From: Spirochaetia bacterium
GTDB taxonomy: Bacteria; Spirochaetota; Spirochaetia; SZUA-6; Bin103
NCBI GenBank assembly: GCA_965203905.1
Contig: CBDBDQ010000005.1
Coordinates: forward strand, 2,464,001 to 2,528,000
Direction of reading: 5' to 3'
Length of the DNA stretch: 64,000 bases
Part shown: positions 5,821-12,089 of the stretch, one piece after another
Layout: each line of letters starts with the position of its first letter
How positions within the stretch are numbered: position 1 is the first letter of the stretch
Translations under genes and position numbers: made by a program
The notes under the pieces: model-generated
Database searches by the model: none
What the model saw: the letters and a program-made list of their open reading frames with translations, nothing else
What the model was told of the DNA's origin: nothing

Positions 5821-7494
5821 GTGAGCGACACGCTGGTCCGCCTCGTGCGCGAGGCGGTGCAACAGGAGGTGGAGGTGCCGCTGTCCAGACCACCGGACAG
5901 CGCCATGGGCGACTACGCGGTGCCCTGCTTCCGGCTGGCCCGCGAGGTGGGCACGCCCCCGGTGCCGCTGGCGCAACAGATCCGCGACCACCTCCGGCAG
6001 CGCGACCTGGCGGCGTTGGGCATCGCCGGGGTCGAGGCACACGGACCCTACCTGAACGTATTTCTGGCCAAGGGCGACCTGGCGGAGCGGGTGATCGGCG
6101 AAATCCTCGAGGCGGGCGCCGGCTACGGAGCACGTGGCACCGGACTCGGCAAGCGTGCGCTGGTGGAACACACCAGCATAAATCCCAACGCGCCGCCGCA
6201 CCTGGGCCGCGCCCGCAACGCCTGGATCGGCGACACCCTGGTACGCCTGCTGCGCTTCGAGGGGTACGCCCTGGAGGCACGCTTCTTCGTCAACGACGTG
6301 GGCCGCCAGATCGCGCTGCTGGTCCTCGGGGTCGGCGACCGCCGTCCCGACTTCCACGAGTTGTTGGAGATCTACGTTGCAACCAACCGGCGCCTGGAGC
6401 AGGACGCGGGGCTGGAACGCGAAGTGAACCTGCTGCTGGAACGGCTGGAGAGCGGCGACCCGGAGCCCCGCGCCGCCTTTCGGCGCGTGGTCGAGATCTC
6501 CGTGCACGGCATGCGCGAGCTGTTCGGTGACGCGGGCGTGCGCTACGACCGCTTCGACTACGAGTCGGACTACCTGACGCCGGAGCGCCACCGGCAGATC
6601 GTGGACGAGCTACGGGCCACCGGCAAGCTGTTCGAGGACGAGCACGGCCGGCTGGTGCTCGACCTGGAGGGCTTCAGGCTGCCCTCACGCAACCCGGTGC
6701 TGGTGATCACCCGCGGCAACAAGACCTCGCTCTACGTGCTGCGCGACATCGCCTACACCCTGGACAAGATGGCCGCCGCCTCCGATCTCAACCTGGTGGT
6801 GCTGGGCGAAGACCAGAAACTGTATCACCGGCAACTCCAGGCAGCCCTCAAGCTGCTGGGATCGGCTGCCCCCGACCCGGTGCATTACAGCTTCGTGCTG
6901 TTGGGCAAGGGCTCGATGTCCACCCGCCAGGGCAACCTCGTGCTGTTGGAAGAGTTCGTTGCCGAGGCCAAGCGCAAGGCCAGCGCCGAGTTGGGCGCGC
7001 GCGGCCATGCGGACGACCCCGCGGTGGCGCGGGCGGTGGCGTACAGCGCGCTGAAGTATTCGTTCCTGAAGGTCGCCAACGACAAGCAGGTGCTGTTCGA
7101 CTGGGACAAGGCCATGGCCTTCGAGGGAGAGAGCGGCCCCTACCTGCTCTACAGCCACGCCCGCATCTGCTCCATTCTGCGCAAGTACGGCAAGCCGCTC
7201 CCCGCCACCGCGGAGTTCGCCGTGCTGGAGGCCGGCGAGGAATCGGAGTTGCTGAAGCTGCTGGCGGAGTTGCCGGATCAGGTCGCGCGCGCGCTGCGGG
7301 TGCGCAGCCCGCACGTGATCGCCGGGTACACCTTTGCCGTGGCGCGGCAGTGCTCCACCTTCTATCATGCCTGCCCGATCCTGCAGGCGGCCTCTCCGTT
7401 GCGCGAGGCGCGGTTGCTGCTGGCGGCGGCGACGCGTCAGGTGCTGGCCAACTGCCTCGGCCTGATGGGAATCGACGCGCTGGAGCAGATGTAG
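5821..7494 (+). CDS. argS: arginine--tRNA ligase
   Basis: VEHTSINPN..HLGRARN (HIGH), MSTRQG (KMSKS-like), GESGPYLLYSHARICSI, DALR domain; GTG start with GGAGA RBS. Confidence 0.96.
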   Translation: MSDTLVRLVREAVQQEVEVPLSRPPDSAMGDYAVPCFRLAREVGTPPVPLAQQIRDHLRQRDLAALGIAGVEAHGPYLNVFLAKGDLAERVIGEILEAGAGYGARGTGLGKRALVEHTSINPNAPPHLGRARNAWIGDTLVRLLRFEGYALEARFFVNDVGRQIALLVLGVGDRRPDFHELLEIYVATNRRLEQDAGLEREVNLLLERLESGDPEPRAAFRRVVEISVHGMRELFGDAGVRYDRFDYESDYLTPERHRQIVDELRATGKLFEDEHGRLVLDLEGFRLPSRNPVLVITRGNKTSLYVLRDIAYTLDKMAAASDLNLVVLGEDQKLYHRQLQAALKLLGSAAPDPVHYSFVLLGKGSMSTRQGNLVLLEEFVAEAKRKASAELGARGHADDPAVARAVAYSALKYSFLKVANDKQVLFDWDKAMAFEGESGPYLLYSHARICSILRKYGKPLPATAEFAVLEAGEESELLKLLAELPDQVARALRVRSPHVIAGYTFAVARQCSTFYHACPILQAASPLREARLLLAAATRQVLANCLGLMGIDALEQM

Positions 7495-7517: not shown

Positions 7518-7601
7518 TGCCGGCGCTCGGACTCGAACCGAGACGGTGTTGCCACCACCAGATTTTGAGTCTGGCATGTCTACCAATTTCATCACACCGG
7601 C
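7518..7601 (-). tRNA. tRNA-Leu(CAA), CCA not encoded
   Basis: Reverse complement GCCGGTGTGATGAAATTGGTAGACATGCCAGACTCAAAATCTGGTGGTGGCAACACCGTCTCGGTTCGAGTCCGAGCGCCGGCA folds as a cloverleaf with a long variable arm and anticodon CAA. Confidence 0.97.
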
Positions 7602-7646: not shown

Positions 7647-7782
7647 TTGGTGGCAGGTCGATCAGGTCGATCGATGCAGCGATTCCCGATGAACGCCCGC
7701 TGGTAGCGCCCCTTGTCTGATAGGTGGAGATGGGCTGATAGGCTGAGATTGGCGTGAGTGCGGGCTCGTGTGCAATGCGGGA

Positions 7783-8295
7783 CTACCGGCTTGGCCTAAC
7801 GAGATGATCCAACCGATTGGAGACCTCGTGTTGAGGCAGGAAGACCGTGGCGTCGTCTTGCCAGGTCTTTAGCGCATGGATCAGCAGCGATCTGGCGCAG
7901 CCTCCGGCTGCGGCCAGTTCGTCGACGATCCAAAGCACACCGTGCACGCGCAGGCCGCTGTCGGTAGCGACCCTACGGAGCAGAGCGTCGCCGGTTAGCA
8001 GGATGCCGCACTGAGTGAGTGCCGTGACGATGCATAGGCTATCGTTGGCGGAAAGGGCGGGATGTCGCTGTTTGAGTGCGAGGGCTTGAGCGACTTCGTC
8101 TGGTGCCAAGTCGTGAGTGATCATCCCGGCATCGTCGAGCTGTCGCCACTGCCCATAGGAGAAATCAAGGATTTCGGACTCCCGCACAGGCAGCGGGACG
8201 ACGAACCGGTACGGCAGATTGCAGAGCACTTCCAGTAGACCTCCTTTGCGGAGGTCGATGAGGCAGGAAGCGTCGTTGACGACGACGCGCGTCAT
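7783..8295 (-). CDS. PIN-domain (VapC/DUF3368-like) putative ribonuclease
   Basis: VVVNDASCLIDL, ESE, LSAND, LLTGDALLR acidic PIN pattern; ATGA overlap with the upstream gene. Confidence 0.85.
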   Translation of the reverse strand: MTRVVVNDASCLIDLRKGGLLEVLCNLPYRFVVPLPVRESEILDFSYGQWRQLDDAGMITHDLAPDEVAQALALKQRHPALSANDSLCIVTALTQCGILLTGDALLRRVATDSGLRVHGVLWIVDELAAAGGCARSLLIHALKTWQDDATVFLPQHEVSNRLDHLVRPSR

Positions 8296-9371
8296 TCAGT
8301 CGTCGGACCGCTGATTTCTCGCTCGACGGAGTCGAGGGTCTGGTTGAGAAGCGCAGCGGCACGCACGGGCGAGATCAGCCCTTCGCCAACGGCGCGTGCG
8401 ACCAAGCGCTTGAAACGTCGGGGCTTTTCGAAGGCCGCGAACCCGTGGTCGGGGCGGATAGGTTCGGGTTCCGTCTTGCGCCAGGGGCGCGCGAAAGTCG
8501 CGAATGCCTGCTGGACGGTGGCAGGAGGCAGGACACCGACCTGCCCGAGGCGCATCAGCATGGTCGCCGCCGACACGCCGTAGGTGTGCTTGAGCCGGAT
8601 AGTCTCGTAGTAGGTAATGCGGCGACGGGCGGCACCGACTTCCCCCAGGAGACGCTGACGTGGAACGAGAAAGGCACCAGCGAAGCGATTCATCGCCGTC
8701 TCAAGCGTTATTGCCGGGTTGCCGGTGGAGCGGATGACCCTGTGTGCGAGCTCGTGGGCAAGGGTGAAGCGTTTGCGCTCGACATTGATCCGGTTCGAGA
8801 CGACGACCGCCTCGGCGACCGACCTGCCACCCCGGAGCACGTGGCACGCCAAGCCATTGATGCTCTCGGGAAGATCATCCACGACTACCTTGATGCCCTT
8901 GTCTTCAAGGAGTTCGCACAGGCTGGGAATGGGATCCATGCCAAGACTCCATGCGTCGCGGAGCTCGTCGGCTTTGTTGTCGATCTGTACTTCAGCCGCG
9001 ACGCTGTCGCAGCGGCGACCCTCGGCCCAATCGACGGTTGCCGGCATGTCGAGGATGTCCTCGATTGCCAGGTAACGCTCGAGGTTGTCTATCAAGATCG
9101 CCTCGGCCTTCGCCCGGTCGCGAGCAGAGGCTTTGGAATGCTTGCGAAACTCCAGCCCGTCGAGGGTCTCGACCTGCGCGCTCATAAGGAAGTCCAGTGA
9201 CACGTTGAGGGTCTTTCCGAGCGCGACCAGCACGGCCGACGAGGGCAGCATCTTGCCTGCCTCATATTTGCTGATGGCCTGAGCCGTGACCCTTGGGGTC
9301 ATCTGCTCTGCGAGTGACCGCATGGATAAACCGGCCCGTCTGCGGGCGAGCCGGAGTCGTTGTCCAAACAT
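8292..9371 (-). CDS. XRE-family HTH fused to ImmA/IrrE (DUF955) Zn metallopeptidase
   Basis: FGQRLRLARRRAGLS...ISKYEAGK HTH; ERKRFTLAHELAH (HExxH); ETAMNRFAGAFLVP. Confidence 0.93.
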   Translation of the reverse strand: MFGQRLRLARRRAGLSMRSLAEQMTPRVTAQAISKYEAGKMLPSSAVLVALGKTLNVSLDFLMSAQVETLDGLEFRKHSKASARDRAKAEAILIDNLERYLAIEDILDMPATVDWAEGRRCDSVAAEVQIDNKADELRDAWSLGMDPIPSLCELLEDKGIKVVVDDLPESINGLACHVLRGGRSVAEAVVVSNRINVERKRFTLAHELAHRVIRSTGNPAITLETAMNRFAGAFLVPRQRLLGEVGAARRRITYYETIRLKHTYGVSAATMLMRLGQVGVLPPATVQQAFATFARPWRKTEPEPIRPDHGFAAFEKPRRFKRLVARAVGEGLISPVRAAALLNQTLDSVEREISGPTTE

Positions 9372-9384
9372 GCGCTACCCTCCG

Positions 9385-9535
9385 TCATTCCCCTGAATGA
9401 TAACCTTACAGGATGGACGTTGAATAGATCGTTGCAAAGTAAGGACTTATGTTCGTATCGATCGCAGACGGAACGGGACACGCGAAGCTTGGTTGACAGA
9501 TCATTGAGATATAATGATATTGTAAACCTAAGGTT
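9385..9535. promoter_or_regulatory. divergent promoter/operator region
   Basis: AT-rich; TTGACA 9493-9498, TATAAT 9510-9515, TGaTATTGT 9515-9523; two TCATT-N6/7-AATGATA inverted repeats. Confidence 0.5.
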
Positions 9536-9620
9536 GATGCAACGCGCCAGCGCCGATAGCTGAGGCCTCGTATATGGACGTGGTGTGTCGGATAGGAGAC
9601 GAGAGTCGGAGGAGACTGGA

Positions 9621-9863
9621 GTGGTTACGTACGAATTCAAGGTGAACGGTGAGACGTTATTCTCAGATCAGCAGGCGGTGGACGCAGCGGTGCTGTTGCG
9701 AACCGCGTTCGCCGGCAAGGCTATTGGTGAGGATCCGGACAAGACCGGGTATGTGCTGAGGGTGCCCAACTCGGACGTGACGTTTGTGTCGGGGGAAGTG
9801 GTGGAACTCGACAAGTACAACGTATTTCGAGCGGTCCCGAAGAAGGGTGCACCGTTCGCATGA
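9621..9863 (+). CDS. small ubiquitin-like (multi-ubiquitin/beta-grasp) protein, about 80 aa (alternative start 9585)
   Basis: YEFKVNG...A..LL...YVL...GEVVELD...FRAVP fits the multi-ubiquitin domain pattern; GGAGGAG RBS before GTG 9621; first gene of the E2/JAB-E1 operon. Confidence 0.7.
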   Translation: MVTYEFKVNGETLFSDQQAVDAAVLLRTAFAGKAIGEDPDKTGYVLRVPNSDVTFVSGEVVELDKYNVFRAVPKKGAPFA

Positions 9864-10285
9864 GCAGGAACTCGGTGCGGATGGCCGCTGAACTCGTTGA
9901 ATTGGGCTATCGCCCAAGTCCGTTCACGGCGCCTCAGGAACAGGGCGGAGCCGATGGAGTCAGGTTCGAGTACCGGATCGAGAATGGCAGTCGCGAAAAA
10001 GACACCGTGACCTTGGCGGTGGCCGTCCACGAAGACGAAGGGGAGTGGCCCGAAGTGGCACCGCACTGGGTGTACCTGTCGCCGCCGGATGATGTTCTGG
10101 CGCAGCAGGTGAAGGGGGCGCAGCCACCGGGAGTTGTCGCGAAACACGAATGCGAGAACGGTCAGGTATGGATGGCGATCAGCGCCCCGCCGAGCGACTT
10201 TTGGGACCAAATCGACGCACAGGACGGCAAGAACATGAGGACCTATCTAAACAGCCACATCCGAAGAATCTGGAGCATGCGTTGA
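9860..10285 (+). CDS. prokaryotic E2/UBC-like protein
   Basis: FEYRI..G....V.LA...WPEVAPHWVYL.P (E2 YP..PP-like), W.AIS...FW, C-terminal helix YLNSHIRRIW; ATGA and TTGA overlaps with neighbours. Confidence 0.65.
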   Translation: MSRNSVRMAAELVELGYRPSPFTAPQEQGGADGVRFEYRIENGSREKDTVTLAVAVHEDEGEWPEVAPHWVYLSPPDDVLAQQVKGAQPPGVVAKHECENGQVWMAISAPPSDFWDQIDAQDGKNMRTYLNSHIRRIWSMR

Positions 10286-11781
10286 AGCATCGAGTTGTTC
10301 TGCGAGAAGTGCTCCATCGTCAACTCGCGGAGCACCTGCTTAGCCGTTTCCAGGACGGGGGACGCCAGGAGGAGGCTTGCTTGGCGCTGTGGCGGCGGGG
10401 GGACGGGTTCAACCGCTATACGGGGATTCTGTGCGAAGTCGTCCTGCCGGACGACGGTGATCGAGATCTGCACGGCAATGTCACGGTGCACGGAGGATAT
10501 TTGAACCGCGTTTTGGATCGCGCGCTCATGGCGAAGGCGGGGGTGGCGGTGCTTCACAGCCATCCTGGGCCTGGCTGGCAGGGGCTGAGCACCATGGACG
10601 ACGATACCGAGCGCAACATCATTGTGCCATTCATTCGAGAGACGGGGTTGCCGCTGCTCGGACTGACAATCGGCTCAGACGGTGTTTGGAGCGCTCGATT
10701 CTGGCAAGAGTCGCGACGTGGCCGCGTTGCGCCCGTGCAATGCACAGACGTGCGGCGGGTCGGGCCGCGCCACACTGGATCGGATTGGCCTCCTGACGGG
10801 CACCAACCGTACGCGCGCCGTCCAAGCTTGGTGCGGACAGTTGACAGTTGGGGGCTGGATGCGCAGGAAAGACTGGCTCGGACGCGCATCTGTGTGGTAG
10901 GCGCGGGGAGTGTCGGCTCGATCTTGCTCGAGTGCCTGGCGCGCACTGGTTTTGAGGAGATCACGATCATTGACCCTGACTCTGTCGAGGAAAGGAACCT
11001 GGATCGTCTGATCTACGCGGACCGACACTGCCTGGGTCTGCGTAAGGCGGAGGTGGCGGCGGCCTATGCGCGCAGGGTCGCCACCGCGCGCCGTCCAGTC
11101 ATTCGGCCCGTTCCATTGTCGATCCGCACAGAGAAAGCGTACCGGTTGGCGGCCGACGCCGACGTCATCGTCTGCTGTGTCGACAACGCGGAGGCGCGCG
11201 AGGTCTTGAATCACATCGCTTACGCGAACTGCCTTCCATTACTCGATGGCGGGGTTCTGGTGGAGTCGAGAGAGCGTCTACTGTCGGCGAAGTGGTCCGT
11301 TCATCTGGTTGGACCTGACATGCGTTGCCTGCGTTGCCGCGGTCAATACACAAGCAGTGATGCACGAGACGAGCGGTTGGGTATCAGGCGCGGTGGACGA
11401 TACGTCAACGATGGCGTTGAGGACGGTCCGGAGCCCGGCCAGAACACGATCTCTTTCTGCAACGTCGTGGCAGCCGAGGAGACAAGGATGCTTGTGCGTT
11501 ACTTGATCGGGGAGGATTGGTGGCACGACAGTGCCGCTACTGCCGGTCAGTGGTCGTTCGAACACCGGTTCGTAGAAGCAGAAACCGAGCCGTTTGAGCA
11601 TCCGGGCAGATGCGTCGAGAGCTGCGAGTTTGCACATATGCGCCTCGGACTCGGCGAGAGTGGGCGACCGAAGTACCCGTTCGCCGACGAGACATTAGAA
11701 GACTGGCGCAGGCGTGTGATGCGCTGGTACCGGCACGTTCGTATGAAGGTGGGCCGTGCGGTTGCAGGAGTATGCGCTTGA
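10282..11781 (+). CDS. JAB/MPN metallopeptidase - ThiF/E1 adenylyltransferase fusion (499 aa)
   Basis: TTG start overlapping the E2 stop, GGAG RBS; QEE...HSHPGPGWQGLSTMD (JAB); VVGAGSVGS, IIDPDSVEERNLDR, CCVDNAEAR, CLRC...CVESC (E1). Confidence 0.9.
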   Translation: MKHRVVLREVLHRQLAEHLLSRFQDGGRQEEACLALWRRGDGFNRYTGILCEVVLPDDGDRDLHGNVTVHGGYLNRVLDRALMAKAGVAVLHSHPGPGWQGLSTMDDDTERNIIVPFIRETGLPLLGLTIGSDGVWSARFWQESRRGRVAPVQCTDVRRVGPRHTGSDWPPDGHQPYARRPSLVRTVDSWGLDAQERLARTRICVVGAGSVGSILLECLARTGFEEITIIDPDSVEERNLDRLIYADRHCLGLRKAEVAAAYARRVATARRPVIRPVPLSIRTEKAYRLAADADVIVCCVDNAEAREVLNHIAYANCLPLLDGGVLVESRERLLSAKWSVHLVGPDMRCLRCRGQYTSSDARDERLGIRRGGRYVNDGVEDGPEPGQNTISFCNVVAAEETRMLVRYLIGEDWWHDSAATAGQWSFEHRFVEAETEPFEHPGRCVESCEFAHMRLGLGESGRPKYPFADETLEDWRRRVMRWYRHVRMKVGRAVAGVCA

Positions 11782-12089
11782 CCGTGTGCCATGCTGCGGC
11801 GCGCCGCAGCTGCGCGTTCGTAGCTGCGGAAGCAGCGCTCATCCGTGGCATCGGGGATGGACGGAGTTCTACCGGGTTTTCACGGAGAGTGACACAGCGC
11901 GATGCGCAGTCCGGTGGTGTCGGCGACGTCACCGCGGCCCTAAGGCGTACCTCAAGCGCATCCCAGCGCCGCCGTATGCGCTCGTCGAACAACCGGATCC
12001 GGCTCAGACTATGGTCTTGACCGCTTCGGACCAGAATAACTCTTATCAGAGAGACCGTGCGGGCAGCCGGCCGAACCTGGATCGGGGCG

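Follow-up and report, generated by a model that had tools for sequence, protein, structure and literature searches.

We analysed a window of 64,000 nucleotides from a Spirochaetia bacterium (contig CBDBDQ010000005.1) and concentrated on positions 7783-11781, where two divergent, translationally coupled operons hold five genes, three on the plus strand and two on the minus strand. The plus-strand operon encodes a ubiquitin-like protein of 80 residues (Ubl; 9621-9863), an E2-like protein of 141 residues (9860-10285) and a fusion protein of 499 residues (JAB-E1), in which a JAB/JAMM peptidase domain (approximately residues 1-165; 10282-10776) precedes an E1 adenylation domain (approximately residues 185-499; 10834-11781). 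The minus-strand operon encodes a 359-residue protein that joins an XRE-type helix-turn-helix (HTH) domain to an M78 zinc peptidase of the IrrE/ImmA type (XRE-M78; 8292-9371), a putative repressor and antitoxin, and a PIN-like (DUF3368-like) putative toxin nuclease of 170 residues (7783-8295). An earlier reading of the DNA, referred to here as the original prediction, had proposed the five open reading frames at these positions together with two start/stop overlaps on the plus strand, and both are borne out: the Ubl stop and the E2 start share ATGA at 9860-9863, and the E2 stop and the JAB-E1 start share TTGA at 10282-10285. An ATGA overlap also links the end of the XRE-M78 gene to the beginning of PIN on the minus strand (8292-8295), in line with the proposed coupling of an HTH-HExxH peptidase gene to a PIN gene. 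The region between the operons (9372-9620), which had been described as AT-rich, has a GC content of 0.50 as compared to 0.61 for the whole five-gene cassette and 0.68 for its flanks.

The most likely start codon of the Ubl gene is GTG at 9621, which is preceded by GGAGGAG and yields the 80-residue protein. The gene starts at the same position in 16 of the 18 related loci found in a scan of one genome per species (ATG in 14 and GTG in two of them). The TTG start of JAB-E1 at 10282 is backed by full-length conservation of 499-residue homologs. The database gene call for the host protein (P0033, 395 residues) begins about 104 codons 3' of this conserved TTG, drops window positions 10282-10593 and thereby loses the JAB active-site residues. 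When the five proteins were scanned against Pfam, NCBIfam and PADLOC, only HTH_3, Peptidase_M78 and ThiF were recognised by Pfam, with PIN just below threshold, and neither Ubl, E2 nor the N-terminal third of JAB-E1 had a match in any of the three collections.

Among solved structures, the best relative of JAB-E1 is Citrobacter BubCD (phmmer E 1.5e-22), residues 3-328 of the query being aligned with BubCD 7-315 across both domains. A profile of 20 JAB-E1 homologs again had BubCD as its best match in the PDB (E 2.2e-26). The motifs HSH..S..D, GAGSVG and CxxC, on which the proposal of a JAB-ThiF fusion had been based, are conserved in all 20 homologs: E30/E31, H92-S-H94 and D106 of the JAB domain are invariant and S103 is nearly so, and in the E1 domain the same holds for G207AGSVG212, R242, K255, D301 and C349xxC352, as well as for the complete CxxC...Cx3C zinc site. 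The stretch between C352 and C393, which contains the crossover loop, is devoid of cysteine. Cys393 is replaced by Ser in most distant relatives, and no conserved cysteine was found in or after the crossover loop among them. Tyr356 varies, and Tyr374 is invariant both in the 20 close homologs and in 13 of 13 sequences of a set that includes relatives at 33-42% identity. Because profile alignment pairs Y356-T357 of the window protein with Y349-T350 of BubCD, Y374 would sit roughly at the position of the catalytic Y370 of BubCD and is the candidate catalytic residue of the loop. The family is large: 807 homologs at E<=1e-3 were found among 8000 candidates scored, the best 120 of which are 63-100% identical to the window protein and mostly about 499 residues long.

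The Ubl was expected to be a beta-grasp protein of about 80 residues, and its AlphaFold2 model, with a predicted local distance difference test (pLDDT) score of 83.5, indeed adopts a single beta-grasp fold. Foldseek ranks the bacterial multi-ubiquitin 8u38 highest (3.1e-4, TMq 0.67), ahead of 9d5b, BubA (9ea8_B, 3.9e-3), 9cd2 and 9d5a. At the sequence level, Pfam Multi_ubiq is not matched. The protein ends in KKGAPFA, and Gly76 as well as the APFA tail are invariant in 16 of 16 sequences. Relatives in which Ubl and E2 are fused carry G-x-TPV at the junction, and a canonical Bub Ubl encoded by a gene of its own ends in QQG-RE. BubCD is described as cleaving directly after a conserved Gly (10.1101/2024.11.21.623953; cited here and below from the part of the text that was available). 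Given the conserved Gly and tail, the junction Gly of the fusions, the QQG-RE end and this precedent, trimming by JAB after Gly76 is the likeliest route of Ubl maturation. Alternatively, the natural terminal Ala80 may be used untrimmed, as would be favoured by several distant relatives that end in ...TPTQVA or ...TPVA and have no Gly at the equivalent spot.

The second protein of this operon shows the UBC fold expected of an E2 (AlphaFold2 model, pLDDT 91.9). An exhaustive VIA-align comparison with 48,161 chains ranked BubB first (9eav_D, Z 8.4, root-mean-square deviation 3.9, 118 residues aligned), followed by eukaryotic E2 and UEV proteins (Z 5-7.8) and Cap2 (5.8). BubB was likewise on top when VIA-align was applied to the 1000 best Foldseek candidates (9eae_C, Z 8.5); Foldseek itself listed weak UEV/E2 rows with a best E of 0.059. 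A Z of about 8 is middling by VIA-align's own note, and the likeness in fold to BubB is argued from its top rank, from a list otherwise made up of E2 and UEV proteins and from a partner gene that encodes a BubCD homolog. All 41 aligned sequences, the most distant at 24% identity, share Ser108, Pro64, Pro68, His69, Trp115 and His133, and the only cysteine, Cys99, is Gly in two of 16 close homologs. Ser108 is therefore put forward, from the alignment, as a candidate catalytic residue. It lies in a Ser-x-Pro-Pro motif (S108-A-P-P) with no His at position +2, as compared to WSRHY in a canonical BubB from genome G041. A search of 1.84 billion representatives with the E2 profile returned 104 proteins at E<=1e-3, among them stand-alone E2s of about 125-133 residues and Ubl-E2 fusions of 201-286 residues. 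Two of the fusions had weak Multi_ubiq matches, and two of 20 relatives scanned had weak Prok-E2_E matches (2-4e-3, below the cut-off); the window E2 had none to Prok-E2_E. The profile also matched some 40 very long proteins (485-5112 residues; P0131, P0135, P0137, P0142 and others) in 4-16 short stretches each, which probably reflects a compositional or repeat motif.

In Bub pathways, the Ubl passes from a tyrosine in the E1 crossover loop to a serine of E2 as oxyesters and without the use of cysteines (10.1101/2024.11.21.623953). The cassette resembles the Type I Bub operons (6E.1; Citrobacter BubAB or BubA plus BubB, BubCD, BubE) in many respects. Its JAB is fused to a single-domain E1 in a BubCD homolog, its Ubl and E2 are closest in fold to BubA and BubB, the conserved Gly of the Ubl is followed by a short tail, the crossover-loop Tyr and the E2 Ser are invariant and a conserved catalytic Cys is lacking. 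Furthermore, it sits at a tRNA gene, has relatives in mobile and defence contexts and is preceded by an HTH plus M78-type regulator. It differs from Type I Bub in the absence of DUF6527/BubE, in proteins that miss the Pfam models Multi_ubiq, Prok-E2_E and Prok-JAB (the 6E models), in the E2 motif Ser-x-Pro-Pro instead of the canonical Ser-x-His with a nearby Asp (S333/H335/D299), in the CxxC/Cx3C zinc site kept by its E1 and in the PIN gene that belongs to the unit. The host genome (98.7% complete) yielded no match to PF20137 (DUF6527/BubE) in a search whose control in Caulobacter was positive, and none was detected in 109 open reading frames flanking the 18 close loci (E<=1e-5) or in 77 flanking 12 distant loci (E<=1e-3). 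The claim of a complete Bub-like system consequently stands for the Bub-like set of Ubl, E2 and JAB-E1, and not for the word complete. The absence of BubE and of the Ser-x-His motif and the failure to match the Pfam models led us to classify the cassette as a sister variant of Type I Bub rather than a member. Separate genes for Ubl and E2 were considered as a novel trait and rejected as such, since Table S1 of the Bub paper, in the part available, lists Type I operons of this kind. According to that paper, the Bub catalogue was built from DUF6527 operons and all Bub operons have bubE; a cassette devoid of DUF6527 means that such a catalogue misses at least one Bub-like clade.

Other bacterial conjugation systems are more remote. 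Bil (BilABCD) and the Cap2/Cap3 pair of type II CBASS share with the cassette an E1/E2/JAB machinery tied to immunity. However, Bil has a separate JAB and an E1 with an inactive and an active adenylation domain plus a catalytic-Cys domain, as opposed to one adenylation domain fused to JAB, and Cap2 is an E2-E1 fusion acting on a cyclase. The cassette has neither of these architectures and no cyclase; the original prediction that cyclase and obvious target genes are missing applies to the entire block.

An E1 domain of this kind might also serve a sulfur-carrier or cofactor pathway of the ThiS/MoaD plus ThiF/MoeB type, or some other housekeeping adenylation, instead of conjugation. The E1 half does match Pfam ThiF (1.4e-35) and retains the zinc-binding CxxC pair typical of MoeB and ThiF, but its NCBIfam scores are far under the equivalog cut-offs for ThiF (77.5 versus 275 bits) and MoeB (67.4 versus 266 bits). 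It is, moreover, accompanied by a UBC-fold E2 and a JAB peptidase, its best structural and sequence relatives are Bub proteins, and congeners lack the cassette, which is an accessory insertion (see below). No thiamine or molybdopterin gene was seen beside any of the 18 close loci; at the 12 distant loci, the one cofactor-type neighbour is that of L040, which has a molybdopterin-binding oxidoreductase at a distance of about 1 kb. The surroundings of both sets are of the defence and mobile type, and the sulfur-transfer or cofactor clusters that would have spoken against conjugation did not appear. We consider a role in cofactor metabolism, already disfavoured on these grounds, highly improbable.

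We then turned to the minus-strand pair. XRE-M78 matches HTH_3 (2e-10) and Peptidase_M78 (1.3e-13) in Pfam as well as 14 PADLOC models of RmrA, the best at 4.7e-44 over residues 4-307; capP (1.2e-10) and capH (1.5e-6) are weaker PADLOC matches, and a match to the NCBIfam spr1629 repressor/antitoxin model (2.5e-23) stays below the model cut-off. The HExxH motif of the peptidase (H206-E-L-A-H210) is invariant in the alignment. Against PDB sequences, matches were limited to the HTH (E 5e-3 to 8e-3). For the PIN protein, the Pfam score of 23.1 bits is just under the cut-off of 23.6, PADLOC returned PDC-S70 models only (1.6e-6) and the ESM Atlas places it with PIN/DUF3368 clusters at 0.96. In all 12 aligned sequences, the five acidic residues D8, E41, D85, D103 and D125 are unchanged; a profile search of PDB sequences gave no PIN match. 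In complex prediction, XRE-M78 and PIN reached an ipSAE of 0.85 in three runs, as compared to 0.01 for the best control; this mark is attained by 116 of 157 solved complexes and by two of 215 mismatched pairs, counts that hold roughly for custom alignments. Contacts agreed between runs to at least 98%, with partner pLDDT of at least 90. In the predicted interface, residues 41-66 of XRE-M78, from its HTH region, and residues 329-355, from its C-terminal helix, meet PIN residues 9-13, 34-44, 61-87 and 102-105 over the catalytic acids; within these, the stretches 9-13, 39-44, 82-87 and 102-105 adjoin the acids. On account of the RmrA match and the predicted complex, the evidence points first to PIN as a toxin that would be held by the XRE-M78 antitoxin over its active site.

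RosmerTA, to which RmrA belongs, is a two-gene system of a Zn-peptidase antitoxin and a toxin of undescribed function, as given in the available part of its description (10.1101/2022.05.11.491447). XRE-M78 matches RmrA over its full length, is coupled to the gene of a small putative toxin and is predicted to bind it. The cassette differs in that its toxin is PIN/DUF3368-like with PADLOC matches confined to PDC-S70, and in that the pair is joined to a conjugation operon; we classify the pair as RosmerTA-like with a PIN toxin. CapH plus CapP, known from CBASS, Bub and other operons, likewise place an HTH repressor and an M78 protease upstream of an immune-type operon, but here both are fused in one polypeptide with an extra C-terminal region, next to a toxin gene. 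For a Bub-associated regulator family with a second role as keeper of a PIN toxin, the nearest precedent is VapKSC, in which CapK/CapS-like proteins, a family otherwise found upstream of Bub operons, bind the VapC PIN toxin near its active site (PMC13373217, cited from the part that was available). As is proposed for XRE-M78, the regulators there control a PIN toxin; the difference lies in kinase/STAS proteins versus an HTH/M78 peptidase, and in a stand-alone system versus one cassette. A literature search, which took in part of Table S1 of the Bub paper, brought up no account of a PIN gene linked to a Bub-like operon.

A single sigma-70-like site, TTGACA-17-GATATT (9493-9521, plus strand), was found between positions 7400 and 12200, and it faces the Ubl operon. 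As 0.9 such sites are expected by chance, the scan alone proves nothing; in an alignment of 16 intergenic regions that have diverged elsewhere, TTGACA falls in register in 15. In the aligned loci the promoter is flanked by inverted half-sites, GGTTGAC and GT(C/A)AACC, upstream of the -35 element and just after the -10 element. In the window these operator-like elements (9491-9539) read GGTTGACA (9491-9498), TGTAAACC (9521-9528) and GGTTGATG (9532-9539). Judged from sequence, the arrangement resembles an operator for a dimeric HTH repressor, and XRE-M78 is its putative ligand. The window copy carries about 95 extra bases (approximately 9394-9480) between the XRE-M78 start and the promoter core, which are lacking in 15 other loci.

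To see how widely this arrangement occurs, genomes and metagenomes were scanned for further copies. The scan of one genome per species yielded the 18 loci mentioned above, at 71-82% identity, in metagenome-assembled genomes of Binatia, Thermodesulfobacteriota, Alpha- and Gammaproteobacteria, Acidobacteria and Bryobacterales, and a metagenome scan added five close loci to give 23 in all. All five genes are intact and in the same order and spacing in 16 of the 23; individually, XRE-M78, Ubl and E2 are each intact in 21, JAB-E1 in 20 and PIN in 16. Since the same genes, order and spacing recur in so many related loci, their grouping goes beyond chance, and the proposal that the five genes belong together is confirmed. 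PIN is the gene most often damaged, being broken in four loci and lacking in two: it is damaged in L004, L008 and L013 and truncated in L015, which is also without Ubl and E2 and has a partial JAB-E1, and it is lacking in the decayed copies L007 and L018. L011, the seventh locus without the full set, is cut off by the end of its contig. In L022 and L025, the PIN stop codons are natural ends and the genes are not broken. In L004, a transposase of the insertion-sequence type (DUF772 plus DDE_Tnp_1) directly adjoins PIN (L004:2266-3591, L004:3622-4110), the last 18 or so PIN residues are replaced and a C-terminal PIN fragment lies 1.4 kb further on; in L008, TGA stands at codon 25 of PIN, where most copies encode Cys. 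The pattern of damage fits a toxin whose loss is tolerated, and it would also fit independence of the two operons.

The cassette is one mobile unit and was acquired horizontally. Nucleotide similarity between the related loci and the window (66-82%) covers positions 7800-9389 and 9577-11782 and ends at the cassette edges, and the best other match in 40 relatives of the host from the same genus, family or order has 41% identity. On the left, the insertion site is marked by a tRNA-Leu(CAA) gene (7518-7601, minus strand; ARAGORN). The distance from this gene to the right-flank gene is 37-242 bp in eight of ten congeners versus about 4.47 kb in the window. Alignment with the empty site of congener G003 and the contrast in GC content place the inserted DNA of about 4.4 kb at approximately 7668-12050, both ends being approximate. 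It is because the site is empty in eight of ten congeners that we conclude on horizontal acquisition. No att-like direct repeats were seen at the insertion ends. In viral contigs, the JAB-E1 alignment retrieved two remote ThiF-like loci (29-30% identity) and the PIN alignment none, and there was no sign of a phage-borne cassette. Among sequencing runs, three from one study contain this DNA, and no RNA run is listed as containing it. In congener G010, the flanks are about 11.8 kb apart (G010:C1:3528202-3541620), indicating a different insertion at the same tRNA-Leu site, and in G009 they lie about 0.8 Mb apart.

Defence-type genes neighbour the cassette at ten of the 18 genome loci, namely AAA_15/OLD-TOPRIM ATPases with UvrD helicases, AAA_21 ATPases, DNA methylases (including the Eco57I/MmeI type), DruA, and Schlafen/AlbA_2 proteins with HNH, and transposases or integrases adjoin eight. 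The lineages that carry a copy among loci L003-L025 include Binatia, Ca. Multivorans, Immundisolibacterales and Thalassobaculaceae. Several such lineages are common in marine host-associated microbiomes, and a shared habitat would explain the spread of the cassette across phyla.

Given these findings, we consider it probable that the five genes form one functional cassette, in which a Bub-type conjugation operon is combined with an XRE-M78 repressor/antitoxin and a PIN toxin for phage defence or a stress response. The plus-strand operon would encode conjugation machinery akin to that of Bub, from a clade that is sister to Type I Bub and has no BubE protease. By analogy with BubA, JAB would most likely cut behind Gly76 and so shorten the Ubl tail, unless the Ala80 end is used as it is; E1 would adenylate the Ubl C-terminus, and the Ubl would pass as an oxyester to Tyr374 in the E1 crossover loop, from there to Ser108 of E2 and finally to lysines of target proteins. 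XRE-M78, a regulator of the RmrA or CapH plus CapP kind, may repress the Ubl operon at the palindromic GGTTGAC half-sites that overlap the promoter, and would at the same time cover the active site of the PIN toxin. A trigger, by analogy DNA damage, single-stranded DNA or a phage product, would then activate the M78 peptidase. Loss of the repressor/antitoxin through its cleavage would lift repression of the conjugation operon and release PIN. The label damage- or phage-inducible in the original prediction likewise derives from the family to which the regulator belongs, and induction of this kind remains an expectation by analogy.

Several points weigh against this proposal. Neither Ubl nor E2 has a significant sequence match to BubA or BubB, profile searches against PDB chains having returned nothing meaningful, and hhalign of the broad E2 alignment with one canonical BubB (G041) gave a probability of 3% and an E of 0.015. 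The pairing in that alignment, of Ser108 with the Ser of WSRHY and of the invariant His69 with the Asp of PLD, is accordingly of low confidence and serves as a lead only. The PIN assignment draws on a Pfam score below threshold, a candidate PADLOC family, likeness in a language model and conserved acids; the predicted XRE-M78:PIN complex comes from shallow custom alignments (12 rows each) and supports binding without showing it; and binding of XRE-M78 to the half-sites is deduced from their sequence. The authors of the Bub paper describe the targets as still unidentified and state that phage protection of E. coli has so far not been obtained with any Bub operon, so that a defence role of the cassette is an extrapolation. 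Finally, PIN is the only gene named as damaged in three of the four loci in which it is broken, and distant relatives of E2 plus JAB-E1 (29-42% identity) mostly have other partner genes, which means that the two operons may be associated without a mechanistic connection.

These last observations bear on the possibility that two independent systems travel together: a RosmerTA-like toxin-antitoxin pair, acting in defence or as an addiction module that stabilises the island, and a separate Bub-like operon with which it would share no more than the intergenic region. RosmerTA being described as a two-gene system, the predicted XRE-M78:PIN complex being self-sufficient, the Ubl-E2-JAB-E1 triad being retained in L004, L008 and L013 where PIN decays, and distant triads having other neighbours all agree with such co-travel. 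On the other hand, a different regulator next to the triad was seen at no close locus (>55% identity), loci from several phyla share the edges and spacing of the transferred block, the promoter and half-sites, which are conserved, immediately adjoin the XRE-M78 start and point towards the Ubl operon, and regulators of the CapH plus CapP kind accompany 31% of Bub operons according to the available part of the Bub paper (10.1101/2024.11.21.623953). We regard independence of the two systems as possible but rather unlikely. A further explanation is that the cascade acts on its own partners, with the Ubl becoming attached to XRE-M78 or PIN, or with JAB or E1 processing one of them, so as to arm, disarm or reset PIN. 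The co-inheritance of the five genes and the absence of any other candidate target or effector gene from the block would agree with this, and there are precedents in the available text of the same paper: Cap2 and Cap3 act on the enzyme of their own operon (Discussion), and BubA became attached to the sole lysine of BubB in vitro (10.1101/2024.11.21.623953). Yet the triad is kept where PIN is broken and occurs without PIN in distant relatives, and we judge targeting of the cassette's own proteins to be distinctly unlikely. If it did apply, a target and an effector could for the first time be named for a Bub-type system, and a toxin-antitoxin pair switched by a ubiquitin-like protein would have spread as a 4-kb plug-in among unrelated bacteria.

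To return to the single functional cassette that we favour, its value lies in the testable handle that a compact sister form without BubE provides on the targets and role of Bub pathways. The PIN gene offers an obvious read-out for toxicity and phage assays, the predicted catalytic residues are few, and the promoter and candidate operator have been narrowed down to about 50 bp. Movement of the intact cassette between phyla speaks for the five genes being sufficient to work together in a wide range of hosts.

The distant members of the clade that escapes the DUF6527-built catalogue carry other partners at the 12 loci inspected, for example DUF2971-like proteins and AAA_21 ATPases. Their E2 plus JAB-E1 operons also lie among defence and mobile genes, with XRE-M78 in L040 and L045 and a weak PIN match in L037. 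In four loci, a convergent gene for a protein of 338-398 residues overlaps the end of the E1 gene (L028:3904-4932(-), L036:7810-9006(-), L040:7711-8727(-) and L029:7792-8175(-)); these proteins share 26-41% identity with each other, have no Pfam match and are grouped with DUF2971 clusters in the ESM Atlas (0.96; structure TM 0.72). A subclade whose Ubl of about 154 residues contains two beta-grasp domains has an AAA_21/AAA_15 ATPase directly downstream of JAB-E1 on the same strand (L033:7814-9082(+), L038:7790-9088(+)), which matches NsnB in PADLOC at about 1e-38. By analogy, a conserved conjugation core with swappable partners would correspond to the pattern of modular defence systems.

Genome G041 carries a copy of the cassette (L009) and, elsewhere, a Type I Bub operon of the canonical form with an AAA_21 ATPase gene behind it (L071, G041:C1:3730500-3742500). 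The proteins of this operon strongly match Multi_ubiq (73.5 bits), Prok-E2_E (96.7 bits) and Prok-JAB (34.2 bits) as well as ThiF and DUF6527. A second DUF6527 locus of this genome (L070, G041:C1:221000-232500) adjoins genes for a ThiF protein, an M78 peptidase and an HsdM methylase.

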